Shown in pieces: positions 1-50,938 of a DNA stretch of 64,000 nucleotides; within the stretch, counting starts at the first letter, position 1, and each line of letters begins with the position of its first letter. The position numbers were made by a program, and so were the translations under genes. The notes below the pieces were generated by a model. That model worked only from the letters and a program-made list of their open reading frames with translations. It was not told the origin of the DNA and did no database searches. The stretch comes from a virus. Lineage: Duplodnaviria; Heunggongvirae; Uroviricota; Caudoviricetes. Where the stretch lies: the IMG/VR virus record IMGVR_UViG_2718218168_000001, positions 32,001 to 96,000 of that record; one strand, 5' to 3'.

Positions 1-161
1 AGAATGCGGTGAACTGCGTGTTTGTCCTTTCTCCGGTAAAGTTGTTTGGTGATCATGAAGTAGTTGGCAATAACGCCCGGTATATCCCTGGTACTGATAC
101 AGGCAGTGTGCTGTTCAATTGCCTCGATCATCTCTTCACGGGTGACTAATGACGTTCTCAT
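1..161 (-). CDS. Antirepressor (Ant-like), N-terminal part only; gene runs off the window start
   Basis: ATG at 161 overlaps the icd-like stop (ATGA). 53 open codons (MRTSLVTREEMIEAIEQHTAC...) resemble the N-terminus of the ant ORF at 48010-49044. Too short in-window for the ORF track. Confidence 0.55.
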   Translation of the reverse strand, partial: MRTSLVTREEMIEAIEQHTACISTRDIPGVIANYFMITKQLYRRKDKHAVHRI

Positions 162-379
162 AGTCCCTCCTGAGCAGAAGCGTTAACAGGGAGGCACCAG
201 TAACTGAGAGAATTGCGCGAATCGGTAGAAAAGCGGGCAGAGAAAATACAGGGAGCATCCGGAAGCTGAGAACGTGCCTCATCTTCTGTCGGTGCAATAA
301 CGAAGTGATAGTGACGTTTTTGGCAGGAGTAAAAGCGCCAGATAAATTCAGAATGAGCAGGGGTAGGGATAGTAGCCAC
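158..379 (-). CDS. icd: Icd-like cell-division interference protein, immunity-region copy 1
   Basis: 73 aa with EFIWRFYSC...TEDEARSQLPD...FSARFST; close paralog of the ORF at 49019-49261; same coupling to a downstream ant-like gene. Confidence 0.65.
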   Translation of the reverse strand: MATIPTPAHSEFIWRFYSCQKRHYHFVIAPTEDEARSQLPDAPCIFSARFSTDSRNSLSYWCLPVNASAQEGL

Positions 380-419
380 AATGGCAGCCTCCTTTTGCTA
401 ATTTAAGGAGCTACCGCGT

Positions 420-530
420 GAGGTCTCAATCTCAATGGCGGTAGCACTGACTGGGTTGAGACTACCGGCGCAAAAGGGAACCGGCCTGCCTTTCGGCAGC
501 CCAGCCAGCACTACCATTGATCTCTGAGCT
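420..530 (-). ncRNA. Putative c4-like antisense RNA region (copy 1)
   Basis: Leader upstream of icd with hairpins (ggtag...ctacc; ctgcc-tttc-ggcag) and motif TTGAGAC (456-462) complementary to direct repeats GTCTCAATC at 423-431 and 612-620. Ends not determined. Confidence 0.3.
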
Positions 531-719
531 AAACGCTACGTATGGCTGTGCGATGGCATGACACAAAAAAAGACGCTTTTGGCGTCTGTGTCGCCTTTTG
601 CATTATCCGGGGTCTCAATCCCGGCACCCGTTTTAATGAGGTGCCTGATAAGCATAAACCGAAAATGCCACAAGGCGCAAGAGGTCAGGTTCAATGTAAC
701 ATCGGTAGCTAAAAAACAC

Positions 720-736
720 AATTTATTAGAGCAAAT
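720..736 (-). promoter_or_regulatory. C1-repressor-type operator
   Basis: aatttattagagcaaat; reverse complement matches ATTGCTCTAATAAATTT at about 15 of 17; upstream of the c4/icd/ant-like module. Confidence 0.6.
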
Positions 737-738
737 AT

Positions 739-2223
739 TCATTCATTAAGCCATGCCAGAGCTTCATCAACCTGCGCTTCGTCTTCGACGCTAAGCACTT
801 CATCCTGGGGAACATAATCCGCCAGCATAGCGAAACAATATGTATCCCAATGGTCTGGTGAGTGCAGGTTGAGTTTTTTCTTCATATCCTCCTTACTCAT
901 CACCTTCCATTGACCTGCGGAGTTAATCCCTACAGGGATTTTCGACGCTTCCTCAATAGTTTCATTACCCTTATCCAGTCTCATACGACCAGATTTTACG
1001 GCCTCTGCGGCTTGAACATTGGCATAAGCACGTTTATCAAAGTACAGGCTCTTATCTTCACGGCTATGCATCTTTTTACCCCAGCGTATACGCTGTACGG
1101 TAATACCATAATACTCGTACATCAGATCCGCCGTTGCTTTACCCAGGCCATCGCCGTCTATCGCTATGGTGATATTGGGGAATCGCTCAGGATTACATTC
1201 TGCGAAAATTTTGGCGGCAAGCTGCGTTTCTGTAACGTCTGTGTATTCCAGCATTCGATAGTTGATTACACGGCGTTTATTTCGCTGGCCGGACACCATC
1301 ATGATATTGATAACGGACTTATCCCGTCCCGTACCACCAGCAACGTCCACACATGCAAGCCAGCCCCATCCTTTGGCAATCTTGACTTTCCGCCGCGTTG
1401 CACGTTCAACCTCATCACGTCCAAGAAGGAAGCCATCCTGTGATTTAGGGAATAGGCCGCGTACCTTAATCATGTACATAGGGTTATCACGCCCGCCGTA
1501 CTCCGCCAGCTTCATTTTGATAAATGCTGGCGTTACCAACGGTGATTCCTCACTGTTAAGCGTGATCGCCGTATAAACGCCATCAGGGTTACCAGGACGC
1601 TTGGCCAGTTTATGGTGTGTATCGTAGAAATAGCCGCTTGGGCGTGTAGGCTGTGACAGCAATAAGATGCGGTTATCCTGTCCGGTAAGAGCACCGGTGA
1701 TGATACCGAAAGCTCTATCACTGACACCGGAGGCTTCATCGATAATATACAGAAGATGATCTGCGTGTTCACCGGCGAGAGCTTCTTCACTTCCCAGACG
1801 AAAGCCCTTCGGTACTACAGTCCATACACCTTTACCAGTAATCTCATAGAAAGCGGTTTCTGTCAGAACAAAATAATCAGCAAGCCATGGGAAACGGCTG
1901 GTGGCAGTAGCCCAGTTTATCTTGATGTACTTGAATATACCGGTCATTACCTGCTGAATTTTGTTCGCAACGATAATGGCACGGGCACCTGGATACATGA
2001 TTATGAACAACATGATCATGATAGAAGTCATGTCTGATTTCCCGGTACCGTGACCAGACGAAACAGATGTCTTGCTACCCTGTTCCTGCACAGACTCAAT
2101 AATCAGATCCTGCTGCCAGGTAGGTGTTTTGCCGAACAAAACATCAGCGGCAGCAATCCAGTCATAACGATATAGCGCCACCAGCTCGCGCCAACGTGGA
2201 TCCGTTACGCAACTTCTGGCCAT
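739..2223 (-). CDS. pacB: Terminase large subunit (PacB-like)
   Basis: 494 aa; Walker-A-like [11 protein letters not shown]; C-terminal nuclease-like region; directly downstream of and overlapping pacA. Confidence 0.85.
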
Positions 2224-3416
2224 TAATCATCATCCCCGTATAGCTTGCGGGTAACTTCTTCGTCTTCCTCCTCGTCTTCGTCCAGGTCTTGTTCCAGCCA
2301 TGGGTCGTTTGATACACCTTCAGTATCAACATCTCCATAACCGCCTGTATCAACGATATCGGCGATTTCTTCCCTACGCTGCTCAATCCACAATGCGGCA
2401 TCGGCGCGGCGGTTGGCGGCCCGTTCTCGCGCAACTTTGTCCAGATCTTCAAGAGAAGGACCACCGACGGCAGTTTGCCTTTCCTCATCATCGGTATTGG
2501 TCTTAGGAGCACGCAGATCGGCTTTGATTTGCTCCAGCATCAGGGGCGGCACTTTCCCGCCATGCGCCTCGATAAATTCAGCTGCTTCCAGCACTGACCA
2601 GTTATTTTCACGCTTTCGTTCGTATGCCAGCTTAACAATGCCAGCTTGCCCCATAGACAAAGCGTGCTTTTCCGCCTCCCGGCTTTCTTTTCGATAGTTA
2701 TTCCGGATGCTGTAAATGGTGTTGATCAGACTGCTTATCTGCGCGGAACAGCTGTTTAGCATGCTCGCGATACGGTATTCAGGCGGAGTACCTTCATCAT
2801 CGGCTTTTTGCTGATCGCGCATTTCCTGCACCAGGCGAATACACGTATCCCTGGCGTTCTCCAGCATAAGGAGATGAGAAAGAGACTTTTCCAGAAGAGT
2901 GGTTTCCAGAACATCGGCCCCGGACCGACGCAACATAGCGCGCGCGGCCTTCCGCGCTTCAACGTTATCTATCAGGTAATCGCCAGCTTCGAATTCAAAG
3001 CGTTCACCATCATCATCCAGGGTGTCGCGTTCCAGGCGATCACGCAAGGTCCGGTGGGCACGGGTGATCACGTCATGATCATCAGAACGATCATTTATGC
3101 GCTTATTTTGGCGCTTCGCATTCTCGACTGCGACACTGACAATGGCATTAACCCTTTGTTTTTCTGCTATTTCAGCCGCAATGTGATCACCGGAATGTTG
3201 ATCATTAGAGTGATCAATGATCATGCTTTTTAGTGGCTTCCTGACTGGCTTATTTGGCTTGCGGCTGTCCGTAGTCCTGGTGTCTTCTTTGAAGGCACGG
3301 AGATAACGACGTGCGGTATTAGGGTTAAGATTAAACTCGGCGGCATACTGTGCGATGGTGTAACCACCATCTCGCGCCAGGCGAGCAAAATTCTTCTTGT
3401 GATCGTCCCAGGTCAC
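2223..3416 (-). CDS. pacA: Terminase small subunit / pac-recognition protein (PacA-like)
   Basis: 397 aa; N-terminal HTH-like region, acidic C-terminus; gene body carries the clustered TGATCA pac-type repeats. Confidence 0.8.
3064..3223. other. pac packaging site: two clusters of TGATCA-type hexamers (3 + 4 GATC sites) inside pacA
   Basis: GATC at 3065, 3077, 3089 and TGATCA at 3184, 3199, 3211, 3218; two clusters about 100 bp apart, the P1 pac layout of Dam-methylatable hexamers. Confidence 0.7.
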
Positions 3417-33467: not shown

Positions 33468-33633
33468 CCACCCTGCCCCCAAAAGTGCATTTATGTGCAG
33501 GATGCCGGAGTTTAGCAGTGAATATTTTGATGATCTGCCAGCGTATATCCTCGATACAGAAACGATGCTGATGGGGATTAACAGGAAGAATCGCAACGTT
33601 AATGATTACAACCGCGCTATCAGCGGTAACTAA
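33388..33633 (+). CDS. o-spanin (Rz1-like lipoprotein), overlapping the i-spanin in another frame
   Basis: MFASAFLLTLSGCSGS lipobox (LSGC); starts inside the Rz-like gene and extends past its stop. Confidence 0.55.
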   Translation: MFASAFLLTLSGCSGSRSANLTPTKVNHPAPKSAFMCRMPEFSSEYFDDLPAYILDTETMLMGINRKNRNVNDYNRAISGN

Positions 33634-47044: not shown

Positions 47045-47845
47045 TTAGCGCGTTGCCGCGACAGGTACCAGCACACCAGCATCAAGCAATCGCTTCATCA
47101 GCCACTGCTGACCTTTGCCGGTTATACGAGTCGTGAAAGAAATCCTGCTTCCATTGCTTGTATCGATCACGGTTTCTTTAAGGGTGAAATACCCACGGGA
47201 TATGTATTCTTGTTTGGGGACGTTCCTGCGTTCACCGGTTGCGATCAGAATTCCGTTATCACGCAACCAGGTGAAGAGATAGTTTTGGCCCAGGCCGAGC
47301 ACTTTGGCATAGTTGCCGATTAGAACCCCGCTGGCGGTAGCAACGCGTTCGGCGAATTCGACTTTAGGTGCATCCATCAGCATTTTTTGCTCCAGCCGTT
47401 GCTTTTGCTCTGCCAGGTCAGCAGCCAAACGGAGAGCTTCTGGGAGGCTCTTCGGAATAGCAGGTTGTAATCTTCCGGCTCGATAGTCGATAAATGTCTG
47501 GTTTACCTTCAGCCGAAACGCGGGAGAAATCCAGCCTGCGTACTCCACTGCGAGCAATTCATGGGCAAAAGTGCCGCCGCCACGGCCTTCGAACGAAACT
47601 ATGCAATTCTGCATAGTTTCTTTTTCAAGCTCTTCGATGAGCTGTTTGGCTGACAGCGTTCTTAGCCATTGAGCTGGCGCTTTATGGGCACCGAGTCCGC
47701 TCGCTCTGTGTAGAGCATTAAGGTTGTAACGGCCAGCGCGGTCGGTCGTAATTTCAACACCACAAATAACAGGCAGAGTGGTTGAAGGATCGACATTTTG
47801 ATGAAGGTTTGATATATTCATATCCGCATTGAATGTTTGTTGCAT
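47045..47845 (-). CDS. kilA: KilA (KilA-N plus KilAC-type C-terminal domain)
   Basis: 266 aa; C-terminal half paralogous to the ant C-terminus (KVEFAERVATASGVLIGNYAKVLG...). Confidence 0.75.
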   Translation of the reverse strand: MQQTFNADMNISNLHQNVDPSTTLPVICGVEITTDRAGRYNLNALHRASGLGAHKAPAQWLRTLSAKQLIEELEKETMQNCIVSFEGRGGGTFAHELLAVEYAGWISPAFRLKVNQTFIDYRAGRLQPAIPKSLPEALRLAADLAEQKQRLEQKMLMDAPKVEFAERVATASGVLIGNYAKVLGLGQNYLFTWLRDNGILIATGERRNVPKQEYISRGYFTLKETVIDTSNGSRISFTTRITGKGQQWLMKRLLDAGVLVPVAATR

Positions 47846-47915: not shown

Positions 47916-47932
47916 AATTTATTAGAGCAAAT
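47916..47932 (-). promoter_or_regulatory. C1-repressor-type operator upstream of kilA-repL
   Basis: aaatttattagagcaaa; reverse complement TTTGCTCTAATAAATTT (16/17). Confidence 0.7.
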
Positions 47933-48009: not shown

Positions 48010-49044
48010 TTAACCTATTGCTACTGGTTTTAACAAACCAGCATCAAGTAGCTTGCGAGTTAACCACTGCTGGCCTTTACCCGTTAATTGGGGCGTCAGC
48101 CGTATCTGGTAGCCATTTTCATCATCCAGCACCACTTCTTTCACCGTGAAATACCCGGCGTTGATGTACTGTTGGCGCGGTACGTTTTTGCGCGCACCAA
48201 AAGCCATGAGAATGCCGTTCTGGCGCAACCATGAGAAAAGGGTGTTTTGCTTAAGTCCAACGACCTTTGCAAAGTTCCCGATCAGGATTCCATTGGCCAC
48301 TGATACCCGGTCGGCAAAATCGACTTTAGGGGCTGCGGCCACCAGCTGTTGTTCCAACTGCATTTTCTGTTCTGCTAACTCGGCAGCCAGGCGTAGGGCT
48401 TCTGGTAATGTCTGGGGGATCGATGGGGTAGGGGAGTTTGCCTGCTGTAATTCTTCCAGTTTGTCGATCAGCGAACGGCGGACCGCTTTTGACTCGCGCG
48501 CGGCAACTCGCAGGGCTTGTTTGTAGGTCATTGTTATAATATCTATTTCTGCGCCGTTTTTTTGACCTACGAAAATTTCGTAGGTTTCTCCTTCAAGTTC
48601 ATCCTTAACTCTGGCAATGAAATCATTATTGCGAACTGGTTTTTCGCTACATAATTTCCGTGCCTCATTGACCATCTTCAACAATGTTTGGCTGTCGATT
48701 GTGTCTCCGATGTTGGGGATGACATTCACGGCTGGTGTTGGCGTAGCTGACGTAACAGGTGCTGGTTTTTCAATATTCAAATTTTTACCGGTCACTCTGT
48801 GTGCCTCCTTTCTCATTTCTGCTACCACTGTTGCGTAACGTAGACGTCCTTGTTCAATCAAATAATCCCTGATCTCGGCTATCAGTAGCTTGTTGATCAC
48901 AGCCTTATCTGTTCGGGTATAAAAACGTCTGGTTATCATGAAATAGTTGGCAATTGCGCCGGGGATCTCCCGTGTCGGCATACAGGTTGTATGCAGGGCG
49001 ATCGCTTCGGCTATTTCATTACGGGTGACGAGAGGTTTTTTCAT
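48010..49044 (-). CDS. ant: Antirepressor Ant (KilAC-type C-terminal domain)
   Basis: About 345 aa from MKKPLVTRNEIAEAIALHT...; start lies inside the 3' end of icd; the longer ORF-track N-terminus is probably not translated. Confidence 0.7.
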   Translation of the reverse strand: MKKPLVTRNEIAEAIALHTTCMPTREIPGAIANYFMITRRFYTRTDKAVINKLLIAEIRDYLIEQGRLRYATVVAEMRKEAHRVTGKNLNIEKPAPVTSATPTPAVNVIPNIGDTIDSQTLLKMVNEARKLCSEKPVRNNDFIARVKDELEGETYEIFVGQKNGAEIDIITMTYKQALRVAARESKAVRRSLIDKLEELQQANSPTPSIPQTLPEALRLAAELAEQKMQLEQQLVAAAPKVDFADRVSVANGILIGNFAKVVGLKQNTLFSWLRQNGILMAFGARKNVPRQQYINAGYFTVKEVVLDDENGYQIRLTPQLTGKGQQWLTRKLLDAGLLKPVAIG

Positions 49045-49261
49045 AAATCCCCTGAACGTCGGCAGAGAAGGGGAGGTTCCAGTAACTAAGTGAATTGCGC
49101 GAGTTAGTTGAAAAACGGGCAGTAAAAATGCAGGGGCCATCAGGCAATTGAGAGCGTGCTTCGTCTTCTGTTGCTGCGATGACGAAGTGATAGTGGTGTT
49201 TTTTACAGGAATAGAAACGCCAGATGAATTCTTGGTGTGCGCAAGGATTGGCATTAACCAT
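49019..49261 (-). CDS. icd: Icd-like cell-division interference protein, immunity-region copy 2
   Basis: 80 aa; QEFIWRFYSCKKHHYHFVIAATEDEARSQLPDGPCIFTARFST. Confidence 0.7.
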   Translation of the reverse strand: MVNANPCAHQEFIWRFYSCKKHHYHFVIAATEDEARSQLPDGPCIFTARFSTNSRNSLSYWNLPFSADVQGIYEKTSRHP

Positions 49262-49319
49262 AGTTACGGCCTCACAATCAGGTTTAACAACCTGCTACCC
49301 GCTGCTAAACAGGTGGCAG

Positions 49320-49410
49320 GACGTGACGGGGTTAGCAGACTGGCGATTGTGAAACCAGCAGGCCGAAGCCTCCCCATCACGCCCCACCATAATTTGGGCG
49401 TAACGCGGTT
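49320..49410 (-). ncRNA. Putative c4-like antisense RNA region (copy 2)
   Basis: GTTAGCAG (49331-49338) is complementary to CTGCTAAAC direct repeats at 49302-49310 and 49481-49489; ends not determined. Confidence 0.35.
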
Positions 49411-49577
49411 TTACGGACACAAAAATACCGCAATATCGGATATCTGCGGCTGTCCGCACAATCATTCAGGCTGCTAAACCCGGTCGCAGAATTTGCTACG
49501 ACGGCGAAACTATAAGCCTGAACGATTAAAAGGTCAATATGATGCGAAAAGATAGCATTCACGACTTAAAAATACAA

Positions 49578-49592
49578 ATTTATTAGAGCAGA
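49578..49592 (-). promoter_or_regulatory. C1-repressor-type operator upstream of c4-icd-ant
   Basis: aatttattagagcag; reverse complement CTGCTCTAATAAATT. Confidence 0.6.
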
Positions 49593-49873
49593 TGAGTGTC
49601 GTGCAATAGAAGTATTATTTGTGATGAAAAATAATGCAGAGGGATATTGTTACTTTAAGATGGATATCAATAGTCGATACATAAATTAAGTTAGCAATAA
49701 ACTATTAACTTAAGAAATAATGCAGATGGTGAACTTGTCTCTGACTTTTCAGCTATACACAATAAGTTAGGGGTTGCTTATAAAAAGTTGATTAATTGAT
49801 ATAAGTCAATGGGAGTATTCTTGTTTACTTTCCGTTCTCGTGGTAACTTCTCGCCGGTTTTTGTTTTTCTTGG

Positions 49874-50395
49874 ATGATTCTTATGTCTAAAAAGTATACT
49901 TTATGCGCTCTTGTTGTATCTGCAATTCTTCTTTCTGGGTGTCAATCTAGCGGTGCTGATTATGCTGCCGATGTTTATGATACCGCTCAATTGAATTCGA
50001 AGCAGGAAACAAAGACAGTCAATATTATCTCTGTGCTTCCAGCTAAAGTGAAAGTTGATAATAAAGCTAATAAAGAAGCGGCACAGACATTTGGTGCGGT
50101 ACTGGGAGCTGTTGCTGGGGGCGTTGCCGGTTATAATGTTAAAGGCACATCGACACTGGGTGCTGTAGCTGGCGGTACTGGTGGTGCGGCTCTTGGTGCA
50201 GCGGCTGGTTCTTTGGTTAGTGATAAAACAATTGTTGAAGGTGTTTCACTGACTTATAAAGAAGGAACTAAGGTGTTCACTTCAACTCAAGTTGGTAAAG
50301 CATGCCAGTTTACAACGGGGCTTGCTGTGCTTATTTCAACTAAAGATAATGAAACTCGAATTCAGCCAAATGCTACTTGTCCAGAAAAGAAATAA
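49874..50395 (+). CDS. Lipoprotein with glycine-zipper region
   Basis: 173 aa; lipobox LLSGC; GAVLGAVAGGVAGY...GAVAGGTGGAALGAAAGS; AT-rich. Confidence 0.6.
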   Translation: MILMSKKYTLCALVVSAILLSGCQSSGADYAADVYDTAQLNSKQETKTVNIISVLPAKVKVDNKANKEAAQTFGAVLGAVAGGVAGYNVKGTSTLGAVAGGTGGAALGAAAGSLVSDKTIVEGVSLTYKEGTKVFTSTQVGKACQFTTGLAVLISTKDNETRIQPNATCPEKK

Positions 50396-50398
50396 TTT

Positions 50399-50938
50399 AT
50401 GAATAAAATTATTTTATTTCTAATCTTTTCTACGTTTAGTGTAGGCAATGCCTTGGCTAACTCGTTGCAAAGTCAAATTGCTGCTATTGCTCAAGCGGAA
50501 AATGAAGGGCGAGCTAAAGAGCAGCAAGCTGAGGATGCCAGAAAAGAACTTATTCGCCAACAAGCACAAGCTGAACGTATTAGAAGAGAAAAAGCAGCAT
50601 CTGCCGCTGCTGCACGCGAAAAACAGCGTGTTGCTGCAGAAAATGAACGTAGAGCAAAACGAGAAGCCGAGCTAGCAAATGACAAGAAGCGAGATCAAGC
50701 TTATGAGGATGAGCTTCGCAAGCTGCAACTCGAAAGCATGAAACTCGAACTGCAAGCAAAAGCGGCTCGTGTCCAGCGAGAAAACGATTTTATAGAGCAG
50801 GAGTTGAAGGAGAGAGCAGCTAAGACAGATGTAATTCAGTCTGAGGCTGATGCAAATAGAAATATTTCTACAGGAAGTAAAGATTTACTGCAAAGCGAAG
50901 GAAAAGCTAGAGAGAAGAAAGCTAGCAGTTGGTGGTAG
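50399..50938 (+). CDS. Secreted charged coiled-coil protein
   Basis: 179 aa; signal-peptide-like N-terminus (LFLIFSTFSVGNALA) then Lys/Arg/Glu-rich helical repeats. Confidence 0.55.
   Translation: MNKIILFLIFSTFSVGNALANSLQSQIAAIAQAENEGRAKEQQAEDARKELIRQQAQAERIRREKAASAAAAREKQRVAAENERRAKREAELANDKKRDQAYEDELRKLQLESMKLELQAKAARVQRENDFIEQELKERAAKTDVIQSEADANRNISTGSKDLLQSEGKAREKKASSWW

Follow-up and report, generated by a model that had tools for sequence, protein, structure and literature searches.

The window examined here is a stretch of 64,000 nucleotides (nt), positions 32,001 to 96,000 of the IMG/VR virus record IMGVR_UViG_2718218168_000001 (Caudoviricetes). It carries two modules resembling the immI region of phages P1 and P7, in which the C4 antisense RNA is encoded together with icd and the antirepressor gene ant. 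Heteroimmunity determined by c4 in P1 and P7 is a textbook case of antisense specificity, and work on it has dealt with a single module in each phage. One of the two modules, copy 1, occupies region 1-738 on the minus strand at the window edge, and the other, copy 2, lies at 48010-49600 on the same strand. An earlier note on this DNA had proposed that these are paralogous c4-icd-ant modules with different antisense motifs, each having a C1-type operator, a leader, an Icd-like open reading frame (ORF), and an overlapping Ant-like ORF. All of these elements were found in both modules, and covariance-model matches, folds, alignment with the annotated P1 sites, and three-way covariation bore out the proposal. 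Region 1-738 contains two thirds of a second, complete immI-type cassette, namely its promoter-proximal part, which comprises, in the order of transcription:

719-735(-): C1 operator TTTGCTCTAATAAATTG, with the exact 14-nt core at 720-733, beginning 4 nt past the pacB stop codon
716-721(-) and 693-698(-): -35 and -10 elements of a candidate C1-controlled promoter, overlapping the operator as at P1 Op51/P51a
652-681(-): candidate constitutive promoter of the leader and c4 (TTGCGC, 18 nt, TATGCT), placed like P1 P51b by alignment
566-644(-): IsrK-type leader RNA (Rfam isrK RF01394, 59 bits versus a cut-off of 50)
571-587(-): stem-loop of an intrinsic terminator with its U-run, called by terminator scan between b1 and C4 and equivalent to the terminator of the isrK model
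434-521(-): C4 antisense RNA (Rfam RF01695, 75 bits versus a cut-off of 45)
423-436(-): a2 target, UUGAGAC on the transcript with a partial tandem UUGAGA before it, a 7-nt perfect complement of C4 a'
391-398(-): b2 target, GCAAAAGG on the transcript, an 8-nt perfect complement of the C4 hairpin-2 loop
158-379(-): icd-like ORF (icd'), 73 amino acids (aa), with a GTG start that is ATG in relatives, aligning with P1 icd
1-161(-): 5' end of ant', 53 codons from the ATG at 159-161, continuing beyond the window

The P1 RefSeq record, which annotates Oc4, two promoters, a1, b1, c4, a2, b2, icd, and ant1/ant2, was used as the alignment guide. Both copies in the window have the same order of parts, one-to-one, as the annotated P1 sites, and the copy-1 operator falls at the position of P1 Oc4/P2c4.

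In the fold of the copy-1 leader, a1 (612-620) lies in a hairpin loop and b1 (594-601) is single-stranded, followed by the intrinsic terminator, a feature overlooked in the earlier note. By covariance score, and by having three hairpins of which the last is the terminator, 566-644(-) belongs to the isrK family of Hfq-binding RNAs and may bind Hfq and activate in trans. Scored with the c4-a1b1 model (RF03163), the copy-1 leader was below cut-off (22.3 bits versus 46.7, at 604-657).

The copy-1 C4 folds at -46.4 kcal/mol (z = -5.6) and presents the transcript segments b' CCUUUUGC (plus strand 470-477) and a' GUCUCAA (plus strand 456-462). Its closing stem is acceptor-like, with GCCA directly after it. 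The b2 target overlaps the Shine-Dalgarno (SD) sequence AAGGAGG of icd' (388-394), and the icd' stop and ant' start overlap as ATGA at 158-161. Plasmid counterparts of icd' are annotated by PGAP as "host cell division inhibitor Icd-like protein", and the Icd-like ORFs of the two copies are 81% identical.

An ORF of 39 aa at 398-517(-), lying within the copy-1 C4 gene, matched the Pfam "Ash protein family" (PF10554, 29.1 bits versus a cut-off of 26), and its counterpart is annotated by PGAP as "ash family protein" in P1-like plasmids. We rejected it as a real gene, the ORF being wholly inside the C4 RNA gene. The family itself may be a protein-level shadow cast by conservation of the C4/CI RNA gene.

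Copy 1 is inserted between pacB and c1

Over the first 3.4 kb of the window, nucleotide identity is 99.4% to phage JL22 and 98.0% to phage RCS47. The matches to P1 and P7 started only at base 741 and covered pacB and pacA at approximately 87.5%. On the basis of these matches, the window is part of a P1-like phage-plasmid, of which JL22 and RCS47 appear from sequence comparison to be the nearest relatives. The genes next to copy 1, identified as ORFs matching P1-like phages, are:

739-2223(-): pacB, large terminase, the upstream neighbor that marks the insertion point
2223-3416(-): pacA

In P1, a gap of 24 nt separates the pacB stop codon from that of c1. Copy 1 therefore amounts to an insertion of 1.7 kb between these two convergent genes. 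The earlier note had placed copy 1 where P1 carries c1, adding that c1 might lie just beyond the window. A tblastn search did not find c1 anywhere in the window. In JL22 and RCS47, both deposited as complete genomes in the phage-record collection, c1 is retained directly past the point corresponding to the window edge, with the ant-like gene (370-371 codons) converging on it, and then come coi and imcB/A, as they do in P1. Replacement of c1 by copy 1 was therefore rejected, while the surmise about its position just outside holds in both closest relatives.

Each pairing specificity has two determinants

Copy 2 is the immI module itself, and its parts, again in the order of transcription, are:

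49509-49590(-): promoters and C1 operator Op51, operator core at 49577-49590
49509-49537(-): P51b-like promoter, TTGACC-17-TATAGT
49457-49515(-): a1/b1 leader, a1 at 49471-49477 and b1 at 49457-49463
49309-49394(-): C4 antisense RNA (RF01695, 69.6 bits versus a cut-off of 45; fold z = -5.1)
49302-49308(-): a2 target UUAGCAG, 7 base pairs (bp) with a'
49272-49279(-): b2 target GAUUGUGA, overlapping the SD sequence GAGG, 8 bp with b'
49019-49261(-): icd, 80 aa
48010-49041(-): ant1/ant2, 343 aa, ANT domain

The copy-2 C4 has b' CACAAUC and a' CUGCUAA, and its 77-nt c4 is identical to that of P7. The copy-2 leader scored above the cut-off of the c4-a1b1 model (54.6 bits versus 46.7 at 49463-49515(-)). 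Both C4 RNAs fold in the shape of the family, with a long closing stem, a short hairpin, a large-loop hairpin, and a single-stranded junction. The earlier note had looked to folds and covariance models of the leaders for support, which the scores (75 and 69.6 bits) and z values (-5.6 and -5.1) of the two C4 RNAs provide.

A motif search of the window placed the copy-1 "a" repeat GTCTCAATC at 423-431 and 612-620 only, and its complement TTGAGAC at 456-462, exactly where the earlier note had them. The copy-2 "a" repeat CTGCTAAAC was found at 49302-49310 and 49471-49479, with a third, unrelated match at 33510, and its complement GTTAGCAG at 49331-49338. For copy 2 the earlier note was thus right about the first repeat and the complement, and had the second repeat, given as 49481-49489, wrong by 10. 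The "a" triplet that it put forward as the pairing determinant is correct, but each specificity has two determinants, and a second, "b" triplet had gone unnoticed. In copy 1 this consists, on the plus strand, of CCTTTTGC at 391-398 and 594-601 and GCAAAAGG at 470-477, and in copy 2 of CACAATC at 49273-49279 and 49457-49463 and GATTGTG at 49345-49351. The resulting codes are:

P1: a target TTGACAG, b target GTTAGTG
Copy 2: a target TTAGCAG, b target GATTGTG (a = CUGCUAA/UUAGCAG, b = CACAAUC/GAUUGUG)
Copy 1: a target TTGAGAC, b target GCAAAAGG (a = GUCUCAA/UUGAGAC, b = CCUUUUGC/GCAAAAGG)

In P1 and in both copies the complement of the a target is the C4 junction segment a', that of the b target is the hairpin-2 loop b', and b2 lies on the icd SD sequence. 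Both copies therefore have the hallmarks of immI: a' and b' of C4 are complementary to a2 and b2 before icd, with b2 on the ribosome-binding site, and the transcript carries a second set of sites, a1 and b1, ahead of c4. In copy 1, icd' is also coupled to an ant gene with nested Ant1 and Ant2 starts, the Ant2-type start being read in JL22.

Contiguous pairing amounts to 7-8 bp for cognate partners and at most 5-6 bp for non-cognate ones. Between copy 1 and copy 2, cross-pairing of the a sites reaches 2-3 bp and that of the b sites 3-4 bp, and by this count of base pairs the two codes are orthogonal.

The pairing codes covary among relatives

A single 7-mer triplet arose by chance in 5.7% of shuffled leaders. 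Relatives were recovered by scanning IMG/VR with the copy-1 Icd. This gave 79 loci, most of which have the cassette between pacB and c1, with 17 in the cre-ref-mat region and two at the canonical immI locus. Together with the window, P1, and both modules of phage D6, 85 C4 modules were compared. They fell into 14 a/b combinations, built from at least 5 "a" and 8 "b" variants. In all 85, a1 equals a2 and is the complement of a', and b1 equals b2 and is the complement of b', with a single G-U wobble in one code type only. The repeats, whose conservation the earlier note had treated as decisive, are thus conserved and covary in relatives.

Covariation was counted on unbiased MAFFT alignments of five IsrK-type and of nine P1/P7-type leaders. 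In both alignments, the four proposed helices were paired in 100% of cells, and compensatory changes occurred in 7/15 and 8/14 pairs, respectively. When the partners were slid by 1-3 columns as a control, 24-56% of cells were paired, with almost no compensation. Variable columns were concentrated in the six motif blocks (24/42, versus 27/220 elsewhere; p = 1.6e-9). The two triplets, which involve both C4 loops and covary in relatives, are not due to chance.

Eight genomes yielded two or more modules, and those residing together differed in a or b, the one exception being a tandem duplicate. At the same pacB-c1 site, the RCS47 cassette (locus L002, at approximately 11590) has the "a" code of the window, and its b is GTCAAAGG rather than GCAAAAGG (RCS47-type GUCAAAGG versus window-type GCAAAAGG). 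Since b is the only difference in code, these close relatives differ exactly at a specificity determinant.

Some of the methods tried were less suited to these RNAs. In 20 leaders, a fourth c4 type escaped blastn-short, for which three c4 sequences served as queries, and was recovered with Rfam. The exact 7-mer triplet search was also blind to this type because of its one G-U wobble, and a wobble-tolerant scan recovered it. Alignment of the three c4 sequences alone with MAFFT was structurally poor, and Rfam models were used in place of a model of our own.

The cassette is widespread in P1-like elements

At a minimum coverage of 80%, pacB was present in 557 PLSDB records and the insertion in 308. 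The corresponding counts for 5,426 complete E. coli genomes were 540 and 301, with up to 6 matching places per genome. These counts indicate that about 55% of natural P1-like elements carry a cassette absent from P1 and P7, a ratio that is approximate because a few matches could stem from cassettes at other loci. The Icd' protein is 93-99% identical in amino acid sequence across 80 loci.

One IMG genome (2698536372) has five C4 modules (L007 2859-2946 and 4425-4512; L069, L073, and L077), including a tandem duplicate of the same cassette behind pacB. The cre-cra-ref-mat region of P1-like elements (L067-L083) constitutes a third insertion site of c4-icd-ant cassettes. The cassettes found there have P1/P7-type leaders and the new "b" codes GTACATG, ACGAATG, and ACTTACG. 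At loci L027 and L033, an IsrK-type cassette with the code TTGGAAC/GCAAAAGG occupies the canonical immI position, upstream of kilA and repL, from which we conclude that cassette families have been exchanged between loci.

The Ant' protein combines an Ant1-like N-terminus with ORF6N

The window includes 53 codons of ant', and the sequence they encode is 100% identical to the start of the 370-aa Ant of JL22. The full JL22-type Ant' has an Ant1-like N-terminus, then ORF6N, then a C-terminal ANT/KilAC domain (ANT match, 1.5e-31). It retains the Ant1-specific N-terminal 83 aa and is 56% identical overall to the Ant1 of copy 2, with the last ~130 aa nearly identical. Within JL22 ant', beyond the part present in the window, an internal AAGGAGG and an ATG at codon 84 align with the Ant2 GTG start of copy 2. 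The 370-aa Ant is 99-100% identical in several relative loci. The earlier note had raised the prospect of a truncated pseudo-module with a disrupted ant; in near-identical relatives the cassette is intact.

The phage encodes three proteins that end in the same ANT domain, those with genes at 47045-47845(-), 48010-49041(-), and 1-161(-). Their N-terminal parts are KilA-N in KilA, without a Pfam domain in Ant1/2, and ORF6N in Ant'.

Other features of copy 2 and of the window

At the end of copy-2 icd (49019-49050) the window reads CAGGGGATTTATG, versus CAGGGGGGTTTATG in P1, P7, and RCS47. A 1-nt deletion in the terminal G-run has lengthened this icd by 7 codons past the ant1 ATG. Its stop now lies 20 nt beyond that ATG, with no ATGA overlap, and the loss may weaken coupling of icd to ant1 in copy 2.

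The exact C1-operator core TGCTCTAATAAATT is present at 720-733(-), 47916-47929(-), 49577-49590(-), and 27289-27302(-), and the window holds 12 operator-like sites where 0.7 would be expected. At 27279-27302, two overlapping C1-operator-like sites in opposite orientation resemble a bivalent operator. Upstream of copy 2, at 49600-50938(+), where P1 has simABC, an A+T-rich stretch is followed by two ORFs, one of 173 aa with a lipoprotein-type signal (LLSGC) and glycine-rich repeats and one of 179 aa predicted to be secreted and coiled-coil-like. Three tRNA genes are present in the window, Met-CAT at 24753-24828(-), Thr-TGT at 26469-26544(-), and Asn-GTT at 26547-26622(-).

Discussion

Copy 1 represents a new specificity and a new location of a known kind of module. 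The mechanism itself is not new, and the comparison of pairing codes is a useful result. An "ant" gene is annotated at the pacB-c1 site in the RCS47 record, and Venturini et al. already mention the insertion and name RCS47 (PMC6906374). Phage D6 has two icd/anti-repressor pairs, and a second region homologous to c4 and icd has been recorded in D6-like plasmids (PMC6799933). In the searchable literature, whose coverage does not extend to the D6 genome paper (Gilcrease and Casjens 2018), we found no analysis of the second C4, its code, or its combinatorial diversity.

The closest parallels to copy 1 are the immI regions of P1 and P7, with which it shares the order of parts, the C1 operator, the Rfam family of C4, the two loop/target pairs, the b2 site on the icd SD sequence, ATGA-type coupling of icd to ant, and the nested Ant2 start. 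It differs from them in lying between pacB and c1 rather than beside kilA-repL, in having an IsrK-type leader with a clear intrinsic terminator and a b target on an AAGGAGG SD sequence, and in its own a/b code and an Ant with ORF6N. One of the two D6 pairs, orf83-orf82, is 95.4% identical in nucleotide sequence over window positions 318-645, and its C4 a' and b' loops and their targets are identical to those of copy 1. The D6 pair, however, is located between ref-like and pmgF-like genes, and the body of its antirepressor is Rha/Roi/KilA-like (313 aa).

The Gifsy-1 locus isrK - STnc1160 - orf45 - anrP (PMC4825925) is similarly arranged. In both, an isrK leader (that of copy 1 scoring above the cut-off of the model) precedes a C4-family RNA, after which come a small upstream ORF and an antirepressor coupled to it in translation, and the long form of the transcript arises by read-through of the terminator. 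In contrast to copy 1, it belongs to an integrated lambdoid prophage without C1 operators, and its output is AntQ expression. As an experimental precedent for the leader, compensatory mutations in that locus (G28A/C162U and G31A/C159U) revealed that the small upstream ORF and the antirepressor coupled to it are translated under the control of pairing between the middle hairpin of IsrK and the RNA downstream (PMC4825925). By their position in the Rfam models, G28 and G31 would correspond to the a1 loop and C162 and C159 to the C4 a' segment, and the IsrK study may have demonstrated the a1-a' pairing without naming it. Its authors did not frame the system as C4-type repression, and they showed that the short RNA activates translation in trans (PMC4825925).

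They also called IsrK a structural homologue of seqA (PMC4825925), an element of the immunity system of phage P4 (CI RNA; seqA, seqB, and seqC). In P4, too, a processed small RNA pairs with repeated flanking sites on its own transcript, and the match of the 39-aa ORF over the copy-1 C4 to the "Ash" family of the P4-type immunity region provides a further link. The P4 system differs, by what is generally known and by PMC4825925, in acting through premature transcription termination of replication genes rather than translational masking of icd-ant.

The above considerations make it likely, in our judgment, that copy 1 constitutes, between pacB and c1, a second and complete immI-type cassette with a code orthogonal to that of P7-type immI and with icd' and ant' locked by C4. 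Promoter use, RNA processing, translational repression, and the action of Ant' on C1 would then take the following course. Transcription would begin both behind the C1 operator and from another promoter that is probably constitutive. Some transcripts would stop at the leader terminator, giving an IsrK-like RNA that displays a1 and b1 as decoy sites. Read-through of the terminator would yield C4 RNA, cut from the transcript, presumably by RNase P, as suggested by homology with P1 and P7. Through its hairpin-2 loop (b') and junction segment (a'), C4 would pair with b2 and a2. Once on these sites it would occlude the icd' ribosome-binding site, and coupled translation of ant' would therefore be blocked as well. 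Ant' released from this control would presumably bind and inactivate C1. Because the codes do not cross-pair, each C4 is proposed to silence only its own antirepressor, giving one lock apiece. A lysogen would thus hold two independently locked antirepressors and be immune to superinfecting phages of either c4 type. When a phage with both cassettes enters a lysogen with a single one, such as P7, the unmatched Ant' would be expressed and C1 repression escaped.

Several observations count against this model. Both RNAs of the element are predictions from its sequence. The candidate promoters of copy 1 are poor matches to the sigma-70 consensus, and neither was called by the promoter scan. Duplex energies computed with flanking stem bases (RNAduplex) separated cognate from non-cognate partners by just 4-9 kcal/mol; these energies are noisy because the G+C-rich flanks pair unspecifically, and counts of contiguous pairs were relied on instead. 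The short leader RNA was an activator in the IsrK study, and a1/b1 may serve as a decoy, a folding aid, or an activator. The ant' gene is cut by the window edge, its intactness being read from relatives that are 99-100% identical. Finally, the middle of Ant', the ORF6N domain, differs from that of Ant1, for which reason the target of Ant' may not be C1.

This last point leads to an alternative in which the cassette is regulated as described but Ant' aims at another repressor or a host factor, and would serve as a weapon or a cross-induction signal against resident D6-like or lambdoid prophages. The central ORF6N of Ant' is indeed unrelated to the center of Ant1, different ant bodies are joined to the same leaders across cassettes, and the same c4 loops occur in D6 orf83-orf82 with an antirepressor of the Rha/Roi/KilA type. 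Trans-acting antirepressors that induce other prophages are moreover reported for Salmonella Gifsy phages (PMC3121763). We nonetheless consider this alternative unlikely, as Ant' has the N-terminal 83 aa specific to Ant1 and a C-terminal ANT domain that is nearly identical, its gene retains the Ant2-type start, and its cassette stands behind a C1 operator and beside c1.

We see still less chance, and a small one, that the cassette serves plasmid maintenance or host control, with the cell-division inhibitor Icd' and C4 acting as a toxin and its antisense antitoxin and ant' as a passenger. On that account one would understand the strong conservation of Icd' and the direct masking of its ribosome-binding site by an RNA in an element that is a low-copy plasmid prophage. 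It does not explain why ant' is always coupled to icd' and intact, and diversified specificity is predicted by immunity rather than by addiction. The icd gene of P1, furthermore, is annotated as needed for ant expression. That copy 1 is a decaying, non-functional remnant of recombination, as the weak promoters and the only partly visible ant' might suggest, is very hard to reconcile with the intact state of all its parts, perfect complementarity at six sites, intact copies in hundreds of plasmids and about 55% of P1-like elements, and the compensatory evolution observed; we regard it as highly improbable.

Beyond copy 1 itself, we tentatively suggest, as an idea that may well prove wrong, that P1-like phage-plasmids maintain a combinatorial library of orthogonal C4 codes, with 2-4 cassettes stacked at immI, pacB-c1, and cre-ref-mat, an asymmetric advantage to those holding more of them, and an IsrK-type decoy leader. 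If so, a prophage with several cassettes would resist all phages whose codes it holds, while its own unmatched antirepressor would break the immunity of poorer lysogens. This advantage of stacking would explain why a pacB-c1 cassette occurs in roughly 55% of natural P1-like elements and is absent from the laboratory phages P1 and P7. The IsrK-type leader would be a built-in decoy, or anti-antisense RNA, making the cassette a three-RNA switch.

Apart from that idea, copy 1 joins the Salmonella IsrK system, P4 immunity, and P1 immI in one family, and the naturally covarying a/b codes offer a ready collection of orthogonal RNA regulators. If copy 1 works as proposed, most natural P1-like plasmids, many of them with resistance genes, would run at least two orthogonal antisense locks on antirepressors, and these locks would shape co-residence, displacement, and mutual induction among P1-like elements.

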